Shown piece by piece: positions 7,359 to 14,225 of a stretch of 16,876 nucleotides of DNA; the first letter of the stretch is position 1; each line of letters opens with the position of its first letter. Origin of the DNA: a virus; IMG/VR virus record IMGVR_UViG_3300009514_000122. One strand, written 5' to 3'. Both the position numbers and the translations under genes were made by a program. The notes beneath the pieces were generated by a model that saw nothing but the letters and a program-made list of their open reading frames with translations, had not been told where the DNA came from and ran no database searches.

Positions 7359-7500
7359 AATATATGTTCCAAAGTAAAAGTAAGGTATGGTCTATCCGAC
7401 AAGAAGTTGCGTGGCACCCTCTCAGGGTATTATCCCACATACCATGTTACTAGAACATATATTTTAGAAGCGGGTTACTAGCCCGTTTTTTGGACTTTTC

Positions 7501-7668
7501 TTACCAGTGGTGGGGCTGGTGGCCAGCCTTGGCCCGTTGATTTCTCTCACAAGTTACACAGTAATGCAACCCATGTTCACTGACATATATGAAGTGTCCA
7601 GCCTTCACACAGGTAGTTAAGCTGGTCACCTGTTCAACCAGTTTTTGTTTATCTTTTTCTTTGCTCAT
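7501..7668 (-). CDS. small Cys/His-rich protein, 55 aa (MSKEKDKQKLVEQVTSLTTCVKAGHFIYVSEHGLHYCVTCERNQRAKAGHQPHHW)
   Basis: This ORF was translated by hand. ATG is at 7668 with no SD. Its 3' end contains a GC-rich palindrome. Confidence 0.3.
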   Translation of the reverse strand: MSKEKDKQKLVEQVTSLTTCVKAGHFIYVSEHGLHYCVTCERNQRAKAGHQPHHW

Positions 7669-7956: not shown

Positions 7957-9090
7957 TTAACCTCCAATGATGTTAAGTGTTTTTTGTAAATAAAATCCAA
8001 TGGTGTTTGCCACTGGCGTTTCTGTTGCTCTGCCAATGATGTATAACACGAACCCCGCATATATCAGGAGCATTATATATCCTTTCAGCTTTCCCATTTT
8101 CTCACCTAGAAAGATAAGAAATAAGACTATCGTGATTACCAGTAACAAAACCCTTAGTTCAGCTACCGATCCTTTATCTGCCAGCCCTATGTTGATACTG
8201 TCACCTGTCAAGAGGCAATATATAAACAGGGGTAAACCCAAGCAGATACATATATCAAAAATGTTGGAGCCTAAAGCATTGGCCACCGCATCATCATAGT
8301 TACCCGCCTTTGCATCCTTAATGGAAAGAATTGTATCAGGTACACTGGTGGCACCAGAGGCTAGGATAACGGCCACGAAATAAGTTCGGATACCAAGGGA
8401 GTCACCTAGAGCGTAACAGGATTCTACCAGTATCCAACAGGCCACAGCGATAACACCTGTAGCAACCGCCAGTAACCCCCATGCATTTTTAGTAGTCCTT
8501 TCCTTGTTGCCGATAACGGCAGAAGTCAAATCCAACTTGAGGAAGTTCCCTAGAAACCCGCCCGAACTAGGATTATCATCAACTTCTTCAAATTCTTCTT
8601 CAGATTCGGATTCTCCCATTGTACGGAACATCACCACTATATAGAACAGGTAAAAGAATATCAGGAAAAGACCATGCATCCAAGTTACTTGGCCTTTGGA
8701 TAAGAGAACGATAAGTAAAAATTCAGCACCGATTAAACATAGACCATCCCGCAAAATCACTTTTCTGGAAACCATAATTACGGGAGCTAGTTTGGCAAAT
8801 TGCACTACCATGAGAATTACAAGGCCAGGGATCACCGCACTGTTAAAGACCGCACTTCCCGCCGTAGTTCCGATACCAAAAGCAAACCCTTCTTTGTTGG
8901 CATATATAAGAAGGGCAATGCTGGTGGCTAGGAGTTCTGGCAGAGAACTGCCAATGGCATTTATGGTGGCACCTCTGACTCCATCAGATAGATTTCTACC
9001 GATAAAGCCAGAGGCATCTTCAAAGCCATCACAGGCTCTCCAGATGATTAACATGGAGCCTATGATACCTATCAGAGATAAAACCAACAT
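7957..9090 (-). CDS. Na+/Ca2+ exchanger, CaCA family (YrbG/NCX_Mj-like)
   Basis: The two alpha-repeat signatures GATINAIGSSLPEL and ASGATSVPDT are present. About 10 TM segments sit around an acidic central loop. The track start at 9171 is TTG and overlaps TerD by 77 nt. The in-frame ATG at 9090 lies 4 nt past the TerD stop and aligns with the YrbG N-terminus. Confidence 0.85.
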   Translation of the reverse strand: MLVLSLIGIIGSMLIIWRACDGFEDASGFIGRNLSDGVRGATINAIGSSLPELLATSIALLIYANKEGFAFGIGTTAGSAVFNSAVIPGLVILMVVQFAKLAPVIMVSRKVILRDGLCLIGAEFLLIVLLSKGQVTWMHGLFLIFFYLFYIVVMFRTMGESESEEEFEEVDDNPSSGGFLGNFLKLDLTSAVIGNKERTTKNAWGLLAVATGVIAVACWILVESCYALGDSLGIRTYFVAVILASGATSVPDTILSIKDAKAGNYDDAVANALGSNIFDICICLGLPLFIYCLLTGDSINIGLADKGSVAELRVLLLVITIVLFLIFLGEKMGKLKGYIMLLIYAGFVLYIIGRATETPVANTIGFYLQKTLNIIGG

Positions 9091-9094
9091 GGTT

Positions 9095-9670
9095 TTAATT
9101 ACCCCCAAAGAAACGGCCAATGGCTCTACCGATACCACCGCCAGAATTGCTCTGGCCAGCAGAGTCACCAAACATAGTCTGTTCAGTTACCTGTCCACCA
9201 GTTTCGTTGATGTTAAGAAGTTGGGGTGAGATTCCGTTGTTGTTGAAATGTGCGATAACACACCACGCACCTCTTTCTTCAGAGATCAGAGGAACATCAA
9301 ACTGAGTGTTACCTGCAATAATTTCTACGGCACCGTCATATTGTTTGAAAGGCCCGTTTCCACCATATATGTTAGCAACAATATATACATCACTGAATTC
9401 ATCAAGACTCTGGATAGTCATGTTTTCTTCATTGTCACCAGCAGTACCGCCGATACCTGAATCCTTGTCTAGCTTGATGCCGTCACCACGTTTGTTGCCG
9501 AAATAAATGTGACCAGTTCCACCATTCTTTTTCTTGTAGAAACAGTGAAGGTCTAAATCCACACCCATCTTCCATCTGAGTCTTGCGTGAAGATTTGTGG
9601 CACTCTCAAGCATACCTGCCTGATTCTTGTCTGCCAAAACAATCTTGTTATTTATCTGAGGCTGATTCAT
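9095..9670 (-). CDS. TerD-domain protein (tellurite-resistance/Ca2+-binding TerD family), 191 aa
   Basis: ATG at 9670 has AAGGAGA with an 8-nt spacer. Motifs GVDLDLHCFY, GDNEENM and YDGAVEII match the TerD DLDASAFLL / GDNRTGEGDGDDE / FGQV blocks. Confidence 0.85.
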   Translation of the reverse strand: MNQPQINNKIVLADKNQAGMLESATNLHARLRWKMGVDLDLHCFYKKKNGGTGHIYFGNKRGDGIKLDKDSGIGGTAGDNEENMTIQSLDEFSDVYIVANIYGGNGPFKQYDGAVEIIAGNTQFDVPLISEERGAWCVIAHFNNNGISPQLLNINETGGQVTEQTMFGDSAGQSNSGGGIGRAIGRFFGGN

Positions 9671-9711
9671 TTTTGATTCTCCTTTAAGTGTTGATTTTTT
9701 TTGTGTTAAAA

Positions 9712-9734
9712 ATGGGGGATAAAATATCCCCCAT
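9712..9734 (-). terminator. perfect 9-bp hairpin (ATGGGGGAT-aaaat-ATCCCCCAT) with a T-run on the minus strand, between TerB and TerD
   Basis: It sits about 25 nt after the TerB stop and about 20 nt before the TerD SD. On the minus strand it is followed by TTTTAACACAAAAAAAA. Confidence 0.4.
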
Positions 9735-9758
9735 CAATATATGTTTTTGGAAACGTGT

Positions 9759-10211
9759 TCAGGTGTTTTCGCTGATGAAGGTTTCCAGAGTAGCATCCAT
9801 TCCCATCGCTCTTTCCTTGATTGTGGTAAGGAGTTCTCTTTCGGCATCATCTACCTGTCCGTCACCCTGGATCTTGTCAATGATATACTGGGCTTCGGTT
9901 TCATCAACCACGTTTGGAGTATCATCATCAGCCAGCACGAAATCGGAAATTGCTCTTGCGAACAGCTTTCCCCATGCGGGTGAGTTTTCTTTTCCCGATA
10001 CGGCATCGTTGAGTTCAAAAAGGAAGTCAGCTTCTTCCTTGTCAACTTTGCCATCTTCGTAGACTCTGGCTTCGATTCTCTGGACTTCATCATCATCAAT
10101 GACTCCATCTTCAAGAATCTCTGCTTTGAAATCTTCAAAGGTTTGTGTTGAGTTTTCTTCAGAAGATCCCTGTTCGGAACTTTCTGGTGTCTGGTTTTCT
10201 TCGGTATCCAT
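9759..10211 (-). CDS. TerB-like protein, acidic, 150 aa
   Basis: ATG at 10211 has ACGGAGG with a 7-nt spacer. The repeated EDGVIDDDEVQRIE / EDGKVDKEEADFLFEL / QGDGQVDDAERELL motifs match the TerB DG-x-x-(D/S)-x-E-E helix-pair repeats. Confidence 0.7.
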   Translation of the reverse strand: MDTEENQTPESSEQGSSEENSTQTFEDFKAEILEDGVIDDDEVQRIEARVYEDGKVDKEEADFLFELNDAVSGKENSPAWGKLFARAISDFVLADDDTPNVVDETEAQYIIDKIQGDGQVDDAERELLTTIKERAMGMDATLETFISENT

Positions 10212-10305
10212 TTAGGAACCTCCGTTTTTTTGATGTTATTGGTTCTAGTTTAAAGTTCGGTTTTGGAAAGACCCGAAAACTTTTTTGGCATGAAATTGGT
10301 TAAGA

Positions 10306-10905
10306 TTATTTGGTTAAAGCATCTGCCCCTGGAATATCCTGGACATACTTGGCCAAATCCATGACCTCACTGGAGTTCTGGATGGTGGGCGTGATACCGC
10401 CGTTTTCGATCTTGGCAATCACCGCACCTACACCCATTTCACTGGAGTTCAGCGGAACCTCAAATTCTGATTTTTCATTGTTAGCCATGAAAATGAAATT
10501 GATTTTGGCATCATACTGAGAAAAGGCAACATTGTTGCCGTTCTTGGCTTCAGTGTAGTTCAAGGCACAGATGTATATAGATTCAACCGTTTCGTCAATT
10601 TTGGCGATAACAAGATCCTCTTTGTTATCCCCGCCTTCGGCACCGACACCCGCATCACCGCTGAGTTTCATGAAGGGGAAAGCGTTCAGGTCACCATAGT
10701 TTCCGTTCGGCAGTTCTTCAGAGAAGATTCCCGTAATCCTGCCGTCCTTTTGTTTGATGAAAGCCTGAAGATCGAGATCGACAGCGGATTGCCAACTTAG
10801 GGTCACCTTGGCCTGTTCCACCTTGCTGGCATCAGACAGATCGGGGATGTTAGCATCTGCACCCTTGTCGTTCAGAGTGATTTTATCTTTTATTGCGACA
10901 TTCAT
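10306..10905 (-). CDS. TerD-domain protein, second copy, about 199 aa
   Basis: The track start at 10962 is TTG. The in-frame ATG at 10905 has AGGAG with a 7-nt spacer. Motifs AVDLDLQAFI, GGDNKEDL, ICALNY and YDAKINFI are TerD signatures. Confidence 0.85.
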   Translation of the reverse strand: MNVAIKDKITLNDKGADANIPDLSDASKVEQAKVTLSWQSAVDLDLQAFIKQKDGRITGIFSEELPNGNYGDLNAFPFMKLSGDAGVGAEGGDNKEDLVIAKIDETVESIYICALNYTEAKNGNNVAFSQYDAKINFIFMANNEKSEFEVPLNSSEMGVGAVIAKIENGGITPTIQNSSEVMDLAKYVQDIPGADALTK

Positions 10906-10982
10906 GATGTTGCTCCTTTTGTTTAGGGTTAAAAAATTCGTCTTTCCGAATGTCAGCTTCAAAGATGTATTTAACGAGAGTG

Positions 10983-11132
10983 TTATTTTGAAGCATCAAT
11001 AACATCCCCATTATGTTTGTTTTTATTAATTTCCATAATCTTTACCCTTGTCAAAGTACCCGCCCAATATCCAAGGGTGATAGCAAAAAAAACTAGTGCT
11101 ATAACATATCGAACTGAAATCTCTCCGCACAT
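10983..11132 (-). CDS. small membrane protein, 49 aa (MCGEISVRYVIALVFFAITLGYWAGTLTRVKIMEINKNKHNGDVIDASK)
   Basis: This ORF was translated by hand. ATG at 11132 has AGGAGA with a 4-nt spacer. It has one clear TM helix. Confidence 0.45.
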   Translation of the reverse strand: MCGEISVRYVIALVFFAITLGYWAGTLTRVKIMEINKNKHNGDVIDASK

Positions 11133-11232: not shown

Positions 11233-11493
11233 TCATCTTACGAAATCTCCTTTAATGATGTTGTCAATTTCATTTTCAATGATTTCTTGATGATATATTT
11301 CCTTGAGCACTTCTTGAAATATACCCACTACTTCTTTTCGGGAATACCCTATTTTAAATAGGATAACCTTTCCATTAACATCATATATTGCTATTTTCTT
11401 CCACGAAAAAAGCCAACCAAACAACGATGCCAGAACTGATTTTAAGTGTGTAATTTCTTTCTTTGTTTTATCAACCATAATGCTATCATCCAT
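11233..11493 (-). CDS. hypothetical protein, 86 aa
   Basis: ATG at 11493 with no clear SD. It is the first gene after the 11494-11671 intergenic region. Confidence 0.5.
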   Translation of the reverse strand: MDDSIMVDKTKKEITHLKSVLASLFGWLFSWKKIAIYDVNGKVILFKIGYSRKEVVGIFQEVLKEIYHQEIIENEIDNIIKGDFVR

Positions 11494-11588
11494 ATTACAG
11501 AGAAATATAGAATTGTCTAATATGGCAAAGCAACAAAAAAGATCAATTTTTTTGAATTAATTTCGAGCCGTATCTGGCCAGAGGTTTT

Positions 11589-11610
11589 GGGGGAGGGTAT
11601 GGGTAGGGGG
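11589..11610 (+). other. canonical G-quadruplex motif G5-A-G3-TAT-G3-TA-G5 on the + (template) strand in an intergenic region
   Basis: The sequence ggggg a ggg tat ggg ta ggggg was read directly. It is highly atypical in an AT-rich context. Confidence 0.35.
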
Positions 11611-11671
11611 AAAGACAGAATCCCTTATATATCAAGCCCTTGTGCTTGTTAAGGGGTAATTTCTGCCCCGT

Positions 11672-11950
11672 CTAGTCTGAGGTTTTAGTGCTGTCAGATA
11701 ATTTCTTCCATGTCAAATATACCAAATTAGACTTCATAATTATTTTCTTAGTCCAATCTCTCCTTATTAGAACATAGGTTCTGCTGTCCTCCACTAGTAC
11801 AGTGCCAGTATCAAACATAAAAGTTCCATACTTTTCCTTGAAGGTGATAGCTAATCCTACCGAATCCTTTTCTACATGGGTGTACTTCGGGGAGCGGTTG
11901 CTAGACAGGCTCAAACTGAACACTAATAATATGATGTACAGAAACTTCAT
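11672..11950 (-). CDS. secreted small protein with an N-terminal signal peptide, 92 aa
   Basis: The N-terminus MKFLYIILLVFSLSLSS is signal-peptide-like. ATG is at 11950. Confidence 0.55.
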   Translation of the reverse strand: MKFLYIILLVFSLSLSSNRSPKYTHVEKDSVGLAITFKEKYGTFMFDTGTVLVEDSRTYVLIRRDWTKKIIMKSNLVYLTWKKLSDSTKTSD

Positions 11951-12606: not shown

Positions 12607-13344
12607 TTATATTTTGGACTTCGCAACAGCCTTTTCGTAGTATTTGACTTTCTTATCGTATTTCTCGTAATGGGTCTGAGCGGTAAGCCATTTCTTATCC
12701 CATTTATTTCGTAGCTTTTTGAATTTCTCCAGTTTATATTCTACGGTATTTCTGATCTGTTTCAGGGATTTATGTTTCTCCTTTTTCTCCCACATCTTCT
12801 GTTTCAGGGCTTCTTTCTTCTTTTTCCGTTTTGCTTTTTCCTTATTAATATTCTCCAGTATTTTGTTGTTGGCCTTGTGTTCCTTTCGCATGTCTTTCAT
12901 GATTTTCTTCCAGGCGGTTTCCTGTTCTTCCCTGAATTTTCTCACCACTTTGTAGGAATGATCGTTGGCAACAAATTCCGTTCTGGAACTGGAAGCGGTT
13001 TCGATGTTCGGATCAACAATGTGGTATATCTCATGAGCAATTACATGAAGTAGATATTCTGTTCTGTTGTGAACAATAAAAACGGGGGAGTATTTATATC
13101 TGCGGTCTGCAATATTTCTAGGATAATTCCCAAAACTTTTTTTCTTTCTATTAAAGTTAAGAGTTATCTCACCGCTATGATAAGCATAGCCACTGTAACC
13201 GCCGTAATTTTTATTCTTGACTGTAATGGGGAGTTTGTAAAAAGAACCTATCTCCGTATGCTTGATTGCGAAATCAATCAGGCACTTGAGATATGCCGTT
13301 GAGTATTTCGAGGTATTCTTAATGGTGTAAGTTTTGTTTTTCAT
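12607..13344 (-). CDS. SprT-like/zincin HExxH metallopeptidase with a Lys-rich coiled-coil C-terminal tail
   Basis: The track start is TTG. ATG at 13344 has AAAGGAGA with a 4-nt spacer. The sequence carries LLHVIAHEIYH (HExxH), preceded by an NYGGYSGYAYHSGEITLN block resembling the SprT N-terminal strand region. The C-terminal 80 aa are K/E-rich. Confidence 0.55.
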   Translation of the reverse strand: MKNKTYTIKNTSKYSTAYLKCLIDFAIKHTEIGSFYKLPITVKNKNYGGYSGYAYHSGEITLNFNRKKKSFGNYPRNIADRRYKYSPVFIVHNRTEYLLHVIAHEIYHIVDPNIETASSSRTEFVANDHSYKVVRKFREEQETAWKKIMKDMRKEHKANNKILENINKEKAKRKKKKEALKQKMWEKKEKHKSLKQIRNTVEYKLEKFKKLRNKWDKKWLTAQTHYEKYDKKVKYYEKAVAKSKI

Positions 13345-13373
13345 CAAGTCTCCTTTACTAACCTTATACTACT

Positions 13374-13402
13374 AATATACATTATTATTTCTTGATCGTC
13401 AA
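13374..13402 (-). promoter_or_regulatory. sigma70-like promoter TTGACG -17 nt- TATATT for the metallopeptidase gene
   Basis: The -35 is the reverse complement of 13397-13402 and the -10 the reverse complement of 13374-13379, with an exact 17-nt spacer. The SD/ATG follow about 30 nt downstream. Confidence 0.4.
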
Positions 13403-13434
13403 CTATGTTATCATGATGTTAGTATGATGTTATC
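13403..13434 (-). repeat. direct repeats of ATGATGTTA(TC) at an 11-bp period immediately upstream of the -35 (candidate operator or activator site)
   Basis: Copies at 13413-13421 and 13424-13432 are joined by a partial copy at 13405-13412. Confidence 0.3.
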
Positions 13435-14121: not shown

Positions 14122-14151
14122 TTCGTTTCTCCTTTCCTTGTCTCTATTATT

Positions 14152-14180
14152 AGTATAGCATAATATCTCTAATATTTCAA
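14152..14180 (-). promoter_or_regulatory. sigma70-like promoter TTGAAA -17 nt- TATACT
   Basis: The -35 is the reverse complement of 14175-14180 and the -10 the reverse complement of 14152-14157, with an exact 17-nt spacer. It sits about 30 nt upstream of the SD of the 13834..14121 gene. Confidence 0.45.
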
Positions 14181-14225
14181 GTCTCTAAATTAGCTCAAAA
14201 AGGGGAAAAACGTAAAATAATGCAT

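Follow-up and report, generated by a model that had tools for sequence, protein, structure and literature searches.

All credible genes in the window, the stretch of 16,876 nt of viral DNA analysed here, lie on the minus strand, and the strand that carries two G-rich islands in intergenic DNA is, as the preliminary description stated, their template strand. That description had reported a canonical G-quadruplex (G4) motif in one island, further G-rich DNA in the other and a series of CTGG..CCAG palindromes. All the sequences that it quoted were found where it placed them, but the GC content of the contig was measured at 38% rather than about one-third. The two islands are real and not due to chance. 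Both belong to a single colinear intergenic module of about 190 nt, present in two copies (A and B) that are 7.8 kb apart, in which the order on the minus (coding) strand is stop codon, small hairpin, C-tract, 4-bp GC hairpin (GGCC-N6-GGCY), sigma70-type promoter (TTGCWT-N17/18-TAAATT or TATATT) and a GGATGATAG motif. We are confident of this anatomy, the parts of which are given below together with the quoted palindromes.

Positions 3631–3653, minus strand: palindrome TTCTGG-N11-CCAGAA, a 5'UTR hairpin UUCUGGUUA-GCAGG-UAGCCAGAA with a 9-bp stem, present in the MFE and centroid folds.
Positions 3666–3674, minus strand: GGATGATAG motif of module A.
Positions 3689–3717, minus strand: sigma70-type promoter of module A, TTGCAT (3712–3717), N17 and TAAATT (3689–3694), with CTTTTTGTTGC before it.
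Positions 3734–3741, minus strand: GTCCAAAA motif of module A, between the GC hairpin and the promoter.
Positions 3751–3797, plus strand: G-rich sequence GGGCCGTTACGGGCCG..GGGGATGGGG..GGGGGG.
Positions 3752–3765, minus strand: GC hairpin of module A, GGCC-CGUAAC-GGCC (GGGCCGTTACGGGCCG on the plus strand).
Positions 3773–3797, minus strand: C-tract of module A, CCCCCCATACCAGAACCCCATCCCC (the island GGGGATGGGGTTCTGGTATGGGGGG on the plus strand).
Positions 3800–3812, minus strand: GCTGGTAACCAGC hairpin, quoted as palindrome GCTGGTTACCAGC, 14 nt past the stop codon (3827–3829) of an 83-aa gene.
Positions 7515–7527, minus strand: palindrome GCTGGTGGCCAGC, a GGCTGGCCACCAGCC hairpin followed by CCCACCAC, in the last codons of ORF 7501–7668 and just before GTCCAAAAAA.
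Positions 11483–11491, minus strand: GGATGATAG motif of module B, start-site or initial transcribed region.
Positions 11504–11533, minus strand: sigma70-type promoter of module B, TTGCTT (11528–11533), N18 and TATATT (11504–11509), with CTTTTTTGTTGC before it.
Positions 11566–11579, minus strand: GC hairpin of module B, GGCC-AGAUAC-GGCU, immediately 3' to the C-tract and paired in both the MFE and centroid folds.
Positions 11573–11582: palindrome TCTGGCCAGA.
Positions 11589–11610, plus strand: canonical G4 motif G5-A-G3-TAT-G3-TA-G5.
Positions 11589–11610, minus strand: C-tract of module B, CCCCCTACCCATACCCTCCCCC, the complement of the G4 motif.
Positions 11653–11669, minus strand: weak hairpin GGGG-N9-CCCC of module B, with no U-run, directly after the stop codon (11672–11674) of a 92-aa gene.

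Relative to GGATGATAG, the C-tract lies 99–123 nt upstream in module A and 98–119 nt upstream in module B; the corresponding distances are 91 and 88 nt for the GC hairpin, 43 and 42 nt for the -35 hexamer, and 20 and 18 nt for the -10 hexamer. The GC hairpin of module B aligns with that of module A, yet the stretches that separate the conserved blocks are now almost as different as random sequence, with the extreme base composition kept in both copies; the genes downstream of the two modules share no homology with each other. The C-tracts start within about 30–60 nt of the stop codon, and the C-rich untranslated stretch as a whole extends from right after the stop codon to about 50 nt before the next promoter. 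In module B, GGATGATAG overlaps the first ATG of ORF 11233–11493, and the second ATG (11476–11478) is therefore probably the true start of this ORF. The C-tracts of both modules are unpaired in the predicted RNA folds (MFE and centroid). Folds of the two gaps are not more stable than those of shuffled sequences (z of −0.65 and −1.19), on which grounds a structured RNA spanning the islands was rejected. A tRNA, a tRNA remnant or a known non-coding RNA at the islands was rejected as well: ARAGORN and Rfam were negative there, focused Rfam scans of both gaps stayed at chance level (no score above 16 bits, where the gathering scores are 45–105), and the only Rfam match in the window is a tRNA at 16370–16443. 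An nhmmer profile of the module found no further copies in any fetched locus.

The motif at 11589–11610 is the sole strict G4 motif on either strand (four runs of at least 3 G, loops of 1–7 nt), its loops being 1, 3 and 2 nt long; this one occurrence compares with 0.09 expected per shuffled window, which, taken alone, gives P=0.09. With loops of up to 12 nt admitted, both islands pass, and the three matches exceed the 0.33 expected (P=0.003). The island at 3751–3812 is indeed G-rich, as had been described, but holds no canonical G4, which would require two 9-nt loops. The two 30-nt windows with the strongest excess of G over C in the contig are 3771–3800 and 11581–11610 (z of 5.2 and 4.7), both in the islands. 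The G4 scoring that the preliminary description had proposed singled out the islands as the only two regions with G4Hunter values of at least 1.5; the maxima are 2.36 (3768–3806) and 2.32 (11579–11619), and shuffles attain such a maximum with P=0.004. According to the energy model, the single-strand MFE structure of module B is a three-tetrad G4 (−42.8 versus −28.2 kcal/mol without G4), whereas for the island at 3751–3812 ViennaRNA yields only a two-tetrad G4.

Searches for related sequences met with few matches. Neither megablast with the entire window nor blastn with the two gaps gave a meaningful match to GenBank phages, and IMG/VR pattern searches with the exact G4 22-mer and two promoter architectures returned either nothing or three chance matches in unrelated contigs. 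No close relative was found for the TerD-like protein in IMG/VR, for the MVP protein in metagenomes (the MVP alignment search recovered relatives at 33–51% identity only) or for the BCS1-like protein in GTDB genomes, and no homolog of the 154-aa neighbour gene among 5.8 billion proteins. Further relatives are a 16-kb contig carrying P0003 and a contig carrying a 75%-identical P0123. The gaps could be compared with those of three relatives, L001, L044 and L045; the GC content of the relatives is 29–34%.

The gap at 3185–3430 of L001 is the ortholog of the module A gap, with a downstream gene that is 48% identical, and it retains the promoter (TTGCAT-N17-TAAGTT), GGATGATAG and the 5'UTR hairpin. 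In L045, a similar promoter (TTGCAT-N16-TATATT) has the layout shared by modules A and B and L001, but a tRNA gene replaces the C-tract ahead of it. The -35/-10-like hexamers are 16–18 nt apart in all four cases, which is consistent with predicted sigma70-type promoters. Where the C-tract would be expected in L001, the one true ortholog compared, there are no G-runs but TATATTACCATGTCAGACTACCTTA instead, and the G4Hunter maxima of the relatives (1.24 in L001, 0.8 in L044 and 1.16 in L045) are all below 1.5. Yet the same spot (L001 3197–3274) is the top C>G window of L001 (z of 3.8, C/G of 5.0) and the sole locus there with C/G of at least 3, a skew that runs against the genome-wide G>C bias of the coding strand. 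Since L001 is without G-runs but keeps the C excess, the property that appears to be conserved, judging from this single ortholog, is the C-richness of the untranslated RNA and not the G4 potential.

The window contains the GTCCAAAA motif four times, each time on the coding strand, and there are more copies in L001 and L044; all of them follow a stop codon or a terminator. In L044, a canonical terminator with an 11-bp stem and a U7 run fills the equivalent slot, which runs from the stop codon to GTCCAAAA ahead of the MVP gene. A second promoter class, CTTGAA-N17-TATAnT-AATAATAGA, is found in gaps 607–781 and 14122–14225 and has no C-tract. A generic promoter scan gave no excess of sites (50 versus 52 expected from shuffles), and 6-mer enrichment in intergenic DNA returned only generic ribosome-binding-site and AT-rich promoter words.

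The count suggested for the palindromes gave nine occurrences of CTGG-N0-11-CCAG, against 1.5 in dinucleotide shuffles and 3.9 expected from the actual numbers of CTGG and CCAG (P=0.018). The CTGG arm family ranks second of 256 in the contig and, likewise, second of 256 in the independent relative L001; five of the nine palindromes are in intergenic DNA or in the final 30 nt of a gene (P=0.012). The proposal of a single palindrome family bound by a regulator holds only in part, as the copies are mixed rather than homogeneous. Their spacers are 0, 3, 5, 6, 8 and 11 nt, and a single CTGG..CCAG operator family was rejected on this variability and on paralog and ortholog comparisons. TCTGGCCAGA supplies the 5' arm of the GC hairpin in module B; its counterpart in the alignment with module A, CGGGCCGA, is not a palindrome. 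The 5'UTR hairpin at 3631–3653 stands just upstream of the AAGGAG ribosome-binding site (3623–3628) of gene 3401–3619; L001 has GCTGGTAACCAG in its place, in which the base of the hairpin is kept and an 8-nt insertion at the centre extends it, which is easier to reconcile with a hairpin in RNA than with an operator bound by a dimer.

The palindromes are a mixture of a boundary hairpin, a 5'UTR hairpin and an arm of the GC hairpin, with coincidental copies inside genes. Among them, GCTGGTAACCAGC(C) is genuine: it is a short hairpin that marks gene boundaries and is specific to this lineage. At up to two mismatches GCTGGTAACCAGC produced 12 strand-hits in 24.5 kb versus 0.5 expected at the rate of 0.022 per kb that other low-GC jumbo-phage loci show, and the identical 15-mer AGCTGGTAACCAGCC follows the stop codon of a non-homologous gene of L001 (1296–1310), where it folds with z=−3.7. 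The sequence at 7515–7527 is possibly a short third copy of the unit of hairpin and C-rich sequence.

The islands are the complement, on the template strand, of untranslated, unstructured RNA stretches that are rich in C and poor in G and that lie equally far upstream of the two promoter copies. As to the function of these stretches, we tentatively favour, as plausible though short of probable, that the C-tract and the pause hairpin act as a rut-like Rho-loading site that separates transcription units. The program RhoTermPredict looks for a 78-nt window with C/G above 1 and regularly spaced C, followed within 150 nt by a GC-stem hairpin with a 4–8-nt loop; its 23,930 predictions in E. coli illustrate the low specificity of rut prediction (PMC6407284). 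In module A, the 78-nt window 3773–3850 has a C/G of 3.6, and the module B windows 11538–11615 and 11581–11658 (78 nt each) have values of 3.9 and 3.2; C spacing is regular in both modules, with 14–15 YC dimers. Coding-strand windows with C/G of at least 3 amount to 0.36% and are confined to gaps A and B and one intragenic spot. The C-tracts, predicted to be unpaired, lie downstream of the stop codons at 3827–3829 and 11672–11674 and would thus be both unstructured and free of ribosomes, the GGCC-N6-GGCY hairpins (3752–3765 and 11566–11579) follow within 150 nt downstream, and the C>G skew is conserved in L001, the single ortholog. No intrinsic terminator (hairpin and U-run) was found on the minus strand of 3620–3826 or 11494–11671 in either the scan or the folds, whereas minus-strand terminators of this type are present in gaps 607–781, 9671–9758 and 14469–14634. 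On this reading, ribosomes would leave at the stop codon and expose the C-tract RNA, the tract with its C>G surroundings would load Rho, the adjoining GC hairpin would make the polymerase pause, and read-through from the upstream genes would end before the next promoter; the G4-forming potential of the opposite strand would be a by-product of the C-runs. Several observations sit less easily with a rut site: the concentrated C5–C6 runs exceed what rut needs, L045 has a tRNA gene where the C-tract would be, the RNA folds are no more stable than those of shuffles, and the near-identical spacing to the promoter is not required of a terminator and would be explained just as well by an element linked to the promoter or by a recent duplication.

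This fixed spacing speaks for another explanation, in which the C/G-tract and the GGCC element are bound, as double-stranded DNA, by a transcription factor of the phage or the host that controls the TTGCWT...GGATGATAG promoters from about −90 to −115. Measured from the promoter, the tract and the GC element are placed alike in the two copies, to within 1–4 nt, although the intervening sequence has diverged, both tracts contain the core CCCATACC (GGTATGGG on the plus strand), and the other promoter class lacks such a tract. L001, however, kept the promoter while having at the tract position TATATTACCATGTCAGACTACCTTA, which bears little similarity, and no motif can be defined from two copies, to which nhmmer added none in the fetched loci; we regard a regulator site as rather unlikely. 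We would give similarly little credence to the view that the tracts have no dedicated function, having been inherited along with a duplicated promoter cassette or left over from a GC-rich insert, kept by chance and eroded in an AT-richer relative. There are only two copies, both in one cassette, the L001 ortholog is without C-runs, and at the low GC content of the relatives such runs may simply decay. Against such a relic speaks the retention of the extreme composition in both copies of a cassette that is elsewhere near-random between its conserved blocks, as does the C>G skew that persists in L001 in spite of the opposite genome-wide bias.

Template-strand G4s can impede RNA polymerases, and the preliminary description had put forward G4 roadblocks that punctuate transcription. 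The location of the islands, past a stop codon and ahead of a conserved promoter, agrees with punctuation, but L001 lends no support to the G4 version of it. A structural DNA switch, in which a template-strand G4 and/or a coding-strand i-motif would form on unwinding of the region and either stop polymerases that come from upstream or insulate or tune the promoter that follows, could appeal to the textbook four-run G4 of module B, to the dominance of the three-tetrad G4 in its single-strand MFE, to G4Hunter values of 2.3 in both islands that are the maximum of the contig, and to the presence of both islands on the template strand at the same place between transcription units. Neither the orthologous gap of L001 nor any of the three relatives, however, shows this G4 potential, module A is non-canonical with two 9-nt loops and only two predicted tetrads, and a lone strict motif in 17 kb falls short of significance by itself (P=0.09), so that we consider such a switch unlikely. 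Its more specific form, in which the C/G-tracts are supercoil-sensitive switches (template G4 and/or coding-strand i-motif) at a fixed position of about −100 of one jumbo-phage promoter class, insulating the promoter from upstream read-through or tuning it when extruded, is more doubtful still. Upstream G4 and i-motif promoter elements occur in eukaryotic genes, and the supercoil-sensitive switch, if true, would be their analogue in a bacterial virus. The islands had also been considered as replication or packaging signals. They are GC-rich within AT-rich non-coding DNA, and some cos ends are G-rich, but a cos/pac site or a replication origin is highly improbable given two copies 7.8 kb apart that are each tied to a promoter, the lack of iterons and tandem repeats, a cumulative GC skew that is monotonic and shows no switch, and a neighbourhood in which neither terminase nor replication genes were found.

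Compared with known Rho-dependent intergenic terminators, the modules share a ribosome-free post-stop stretch of about 78 nt, with a C/G of 3.2–3.9 here (PMC6407284). They resemble them further in the regular C and many YC dimers, in being predicted to be unstructured and in the GC hairpin with a 6-nt loop immediately downstream. They differ in that C is packed into a 22–25-nt tract with C4–C6 runs instead of being spread, and in the fixed spacing to the next promoter. The stop-to-promoter slot is the same as that of intrinsic terminators, real ones being carried by L044 and by other gaps of the contig, but a stable hairpin followed by a U-run is missing from the coding strand of gaps A and B. 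Putative G4 sequences are known in bacterial and phage regulatory regions, including from surveys and E. coli reporter studies. The match of 11589–11610 to (G3+N1-7)x4, G4Hunter values above 2 in both islands and the non-coding location near a promoter are in line with these, in contrast to the lack of conservation in the nearest relative and the non-canonical second island. Repeated intercistronic stem-loops and extragenic palindromes (REP-like elements, phage intergenic stem-loops) are likewise known in phages and bacteria. GCTGGTAACCAGC(C) is comparable to them in recurring at non-orthologous gene boundaries in two diverged genomes, but GCTGGTAACCAGC is very short (arms of 5–6 bp), has few copies and is not followed by a U-run on the coding strand.

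Of the readings weighed, the preferred one is that the islands belong to Rho-type termination signals at gene boundaries rather than to dedicated G-quadruplex devices; we take them for ordinary regulatory punctuation in a novel phage lineage. Should the G4/i-motif reading be true instead, they would join a very small number of candidates for structural-DNA regulators in phages. With a rut-like function, the modules would offer a compact example of an AT-rich phage that marks operon boundaries without hairpin and U-run terminators. A textbook G4 motif could then be the by-product of selection for C-rich RNA from the opposite strand, which would call for caution in G4 surveys of phage and bacterial genomes. 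The two promoter classes, GGATGATAG, GTCCAAAA and the boundary hairpin GCTGGTAACCAGC are the first regulatory landmarks for a lineage without a cultured or annotated relative.

The sequences quoted in the preliminary description were each found at their coordinates, and its proposal of a G-quadruplex (G4) motif unlikely to be chance was borne out by most measures. The strict motif at 11589-11610 is the sole one on either strand of the window, against 0.09 expected (P=0.09, suggestive only). When loops of up to 12 nt were allowed, both G-rich islands (3771-3800 and 11581-11610, + strand) qualified (P=0.003). The islands are also the top two 30-nt windows ranked by G-over-C skew (z 5.2 and 4.7) and the only regions with G4Hunter scores of at least 1.5 (2.36 and 2.32), a maximum this high being reached in 0.4% of dinucleotide shuffles. 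A single-strand energy model allowing G4s gave a three-tetrad quadruplex in the minimum free energy (MFE) structure of the 11.6-kb island and only a two-tetrad one for the 3.8-kb island. The 11.6-kb site formally belongs to the class of putative quadruplex sequences.

The intergenic gaps around the 3.8-kb (A) and 11.6-kb (B) islands were read on the coding strand and then aligned with each other. The two islands are corresponding parts of one colinear module, in which the stop codon is followed, 5' to 3', by a small hairpin, a C-tract, a 4-bp GC hairpin, AT-rich DNA, a promoter and GGATGATAG.

Elements of the module in gaps A and B (minus strand; distances are from GGATGATAG)
After the stop codon: small hairpin, GCTGGTAACCAGC in A, GGGG-N9-CCCC in B
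C-tract: 99-123 nt in A, 98-119 nt in B
3' of the C-tract: GC hairpin GGCC-N6-GGCY, 4 bp; 91 nt in A, 88 nt in B
After the AT-rich DNA: (C)TTTTTGTTGC, overlapping the -35-like TTGCAT or TTGCTT; -35 at 43 nt in A, 42 nt in B
17-18 nt past the -35: -10-like TAAATT or TATATT; 20 nt in A, 18 nt in B
13-15 nt past the -10-like hexamer: GGATGATAG, the last element

Only two copies of GGATGATAG exist on the coding strand of the window, and the chance of both top G-rich windows lying at one offset from this pair is negligible. Since the genes downstream of the two modules are unrelated to one another, the shared unit is a regulatory cassette. An nhmmer profile retrieved no third copy from the window or any fetched locus, Rfam gave no family match for the gaps, and no DNA similar to the gaps was found in GenBank phages. 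In module B, GGATGATAG and the first ATG annotated for ORF 11233-11493 overlap, so that the true start is probably 11478.

Three relatives were read for comparison, given here with the identity of their major vault protein (MVP) homologues: L001 (MVP 67% identical; 29% GC), L044 (60%) and L045 (52%). Gap 3185-3430 of L001 is the orthologue of module A, its operon including a homologue 48% identical to gene 3401-3619. Retained in this gap are TTGCAT-N17-TAAGTT, the 40-nt spacing, GATGATAG and CTAGTTTT, as well as a CTGG..CCAG hairpin ahead of the ribosome-binding site. At the C-tract position it reads TATATTACCATGTCAGACTACCTTA, with neither C-runs nor G-runs, and the highest G4Hunter score across the three relatives is 1.24. 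Positions 3197-3274 of L001 are the top C>G 78-nt window of that contig (z 3.8; C 26% vs G 5%) and the only place in it where C/G is at least 3; on the coding strand of our window this ratio is reached in 0.36% of 78-nt windows, namely in gaps A and B and at one intragenic spot. As L001 has the skew without the G-runs, the sequences indicate that what is common to the two paralogues and the orthologue is a C-rich, G-poor transcript right past the stop codon, rather than a template strand able to form a quadruplex. In L044, the stretch between the stop codon and a conserved GTCCAAAA upstream of the MVP gene holds an intrinsic terminator (11-bp stem and T7), and in L045 a tRNA gene precedes a similar promoter, TTGCAT-N16-TATATT. 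Several tRNA genes lie within intergenic gaps of L045. The AUG within GGATGATAG opens a short upstream ORF in the window (3666-3640, minus strand; MIDLASFLVSR*) and in L001 (3363-3440, plus strand; MIGLTSFMVKLV...); the alike beginnings may reflect conservation at the nucleotide level (CTAGTTTT).

Among known kinds, the intergenic Rho-dependent terminator comes closest in function. A Rho-utilisation (rut) site can be defined as about 70-80 nt of C-rich, G-poor, unstructured and ribosome-free RNA with regular C, followed by a pause hairpin (PMC6407284). Both gaps conform to this definition, although rut prediction is an unspecific method: the candidate stretches lie immediately past the stop codons, have C/G of 3.2-3.9 and regularly spaced C with 14-15 YC dimers, their C-tracts are unpaired in predicted MFE and centroid folds, and a GC-stem hairpin with a 6-nt loop stands directly 3' of each C-tract. 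No coding-strand hairpin with a U-run was found in gaps A and B, whereas canonical terminators of this kind are present in gaps 607-781, 9671-9758 and 14469-14634. These (minus strand, ~700-735, 9715-9732 and 14489-14519) follow the MVP gene, 9759-10211 and 14635-15042, so that the phage also uses intrinsic termination. Given the fit to the rut definition and the lack of an intrinsic terminator, we favour gaps A and B as candidate Rho-type boundary terminators ahead of a promoter. The C-rich RNA past the stop codon would act as a rut-like site and the GC hairpin as the pause, and the G4 motif would be a complementary-strand by-product of the C-runs.

Rut function alone, however, leaves the concentrated C5-C6 runs unexplained and does not account for the fixed distance between C-tract and promoter. 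On account of these two features, two rivals stay in contention: a regulator site in double-stranded DNA at about -100, and a G4/i-motif structural switch at this fixed position of one phage promoter class, the latter of which we regard as improbable. Alternatively, the C-tracts may have been carried along neutrally when the cassette was duplicated. The packaging or replication signals also proposed in the preliminary description are unlikely, as there are two copies, each promoter-linked, iterons are absent and GC skew is monotonic.

The excess of CTGG..CCAG palindromes stood, albeit reduced: nine CTGG-N0-11-CCAG sites were counted where shuffles give 1.5, but CTGG and CCAG are themselves common, making 3.9 the fair expectation (P=0.018). 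The arm family ranks second of 256 4-mer arm families both in the window and in the independent relative L001, and 5/9 copies are intergenic or fall within the final 30 nt of a gene (P=0.012). Their treatment as one family did not hold, since the members differ in kind.

Palindromes of the window
3631-3653: TTCTGG-N11-CCAGAA, 5'UTR hairpin with a 9-bp stem just upstream of the ribosome-binding site
3800-3812: GCTGGTAACCAGC, boundary hairpin, a recurrent element judged real
7515-7527: GCTGG-tgg-CCAGC, within the final codons of ORF 7501-7668
11573-11582: TCTGGCCAGA, giving the GGCC arm of the module B GC hairpin
4618, 7835, 8345, 9152: intragenic copies, apparently coincidental

For 3800-3812, the identical 15-mer AGCTGGTAACCAGCC recurs in L001 past the stop codon of a gene that is not homologous, where a 5-bp triloop hairpin is predicted (z=-3.7), and L001 has two more near-copies. 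With up to two mismatches, the 24.5 kb of window and L001 give 12 strand-hits, against a background of 0.022 per kb in other jumbo-phage loci of low GC (406 kb). The L001 counterpart of 3631-3653, GCTGGTAACCAG, carries 8 additional nt at its centre that make the stem longer, which argues for an RNA hairpin over a fixed-spacing operator. TCTGGCCAGA aligns to the non-palindromic CGGGCCGA of module A. Because 7515-7527 precedes a short C-rich segment and GTCCAAAAAA, it may represent a shortened version of the hairpin and C-rich unit. TGGCCA has nine sites (e.g. 4619, 7520, 9153, 11575) against roughly two expected by our own estimate from base composition, and CTGGCCAG three against roughly 0.1; codon usage is among the possible causes of both.

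The gaps of the window contain recognisable sigma70-like promoters and strong ribosome-binding sites of the AAGGAG type. Promoters of a second class, CTTGAA or TTGACG, N17, (TG)TATAnT (minus strand), occur in gaps 607-781 and 14122-14225, with a looser case in 13348-13429; AATAATAGA directly follows (TG)TATAnT, and the RATRATAG start region resembles the first-class GGATGATAG. GTCCAAAA, flanked by A-runs, lies at 3734-3741, 7488-7495, 12612-12619 and 14621-14628 (minus strand), and at L001 7555 and L044 1014. All four copies in the window are on the coding strand, each directly past a stop codon or terminator, a placement kept in two relatives; it may belong to a promoter, or signal processing or termination. 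The 142-nt gap 7359-7500 (minus strand) has a long multi-branch predicted fold (-38.6 kcal/mol, z=-2.8, equalled by 1/200 shuffles) and matches no Rfam family; it could serve as a structured leader or small RNA. Much of an apparent 270-nt gap is occupied by an unlisted 49-aa ORF (10983-11132, minus strand; MCGEISVRYVIALVFFAITLGYWAGTL...) with a hydrophobic helix and an upstream AGGAG site.

The window makes up a whole JGI metagenome contig (16,876 bp), has 38% GC, and all its credible ORFs are on the minus strand.

Identified genes (minus strand)
782-3385: MVP-like gene, 867 aa, MVP shoulder domain (1e-21)
7957-9171: Na/Ca exchanger
9095-9670 and 10306-10962: two paralogous proteins matching one PHROG only (5698, function not assigned)
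15044-16396: BCS1-type AAA ATPase
about 16369-16444: tRNA, anticodon CAA (Leu)

The paralogues look TerD-like by eye, with no confirming match in the libraries. They cluster with the exchanger and an acidic protein of 150 aa that weakly matches DUF533 (7957-10962, minus strand) in what looks like a phage-borne calcium or tellurite-resistance-style module. The tRNA (74-76 nt) has a variable loop of 5 nt, where bacterial tRNA-Leu typically carries a long variable arm. The best cultured-phage matches of the ATPase are Tenacibaculum jumbo phages (33-36% identity), 27 viral contigs in IMG/VR (13-436 kb) carry MVP homologues (33-51% identity), and GenBank phages gave no nucleotide match; we therefore treat the contig as part of a phage that is unsampled and probably large. 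Bacteria have thousands of MVP homologues, and our literature search on MVP in jumbo phages returned nothing beyond a tangential preprint mention.

Rho-dependent intergenic terminators and putative quadruplex sequences are both already known kinds. The novelty lies in this particular module with its motifs, in a phage lineage not sampled before, where the conserved variable appears to be the C>G skew of the transcript and not G4 potential.
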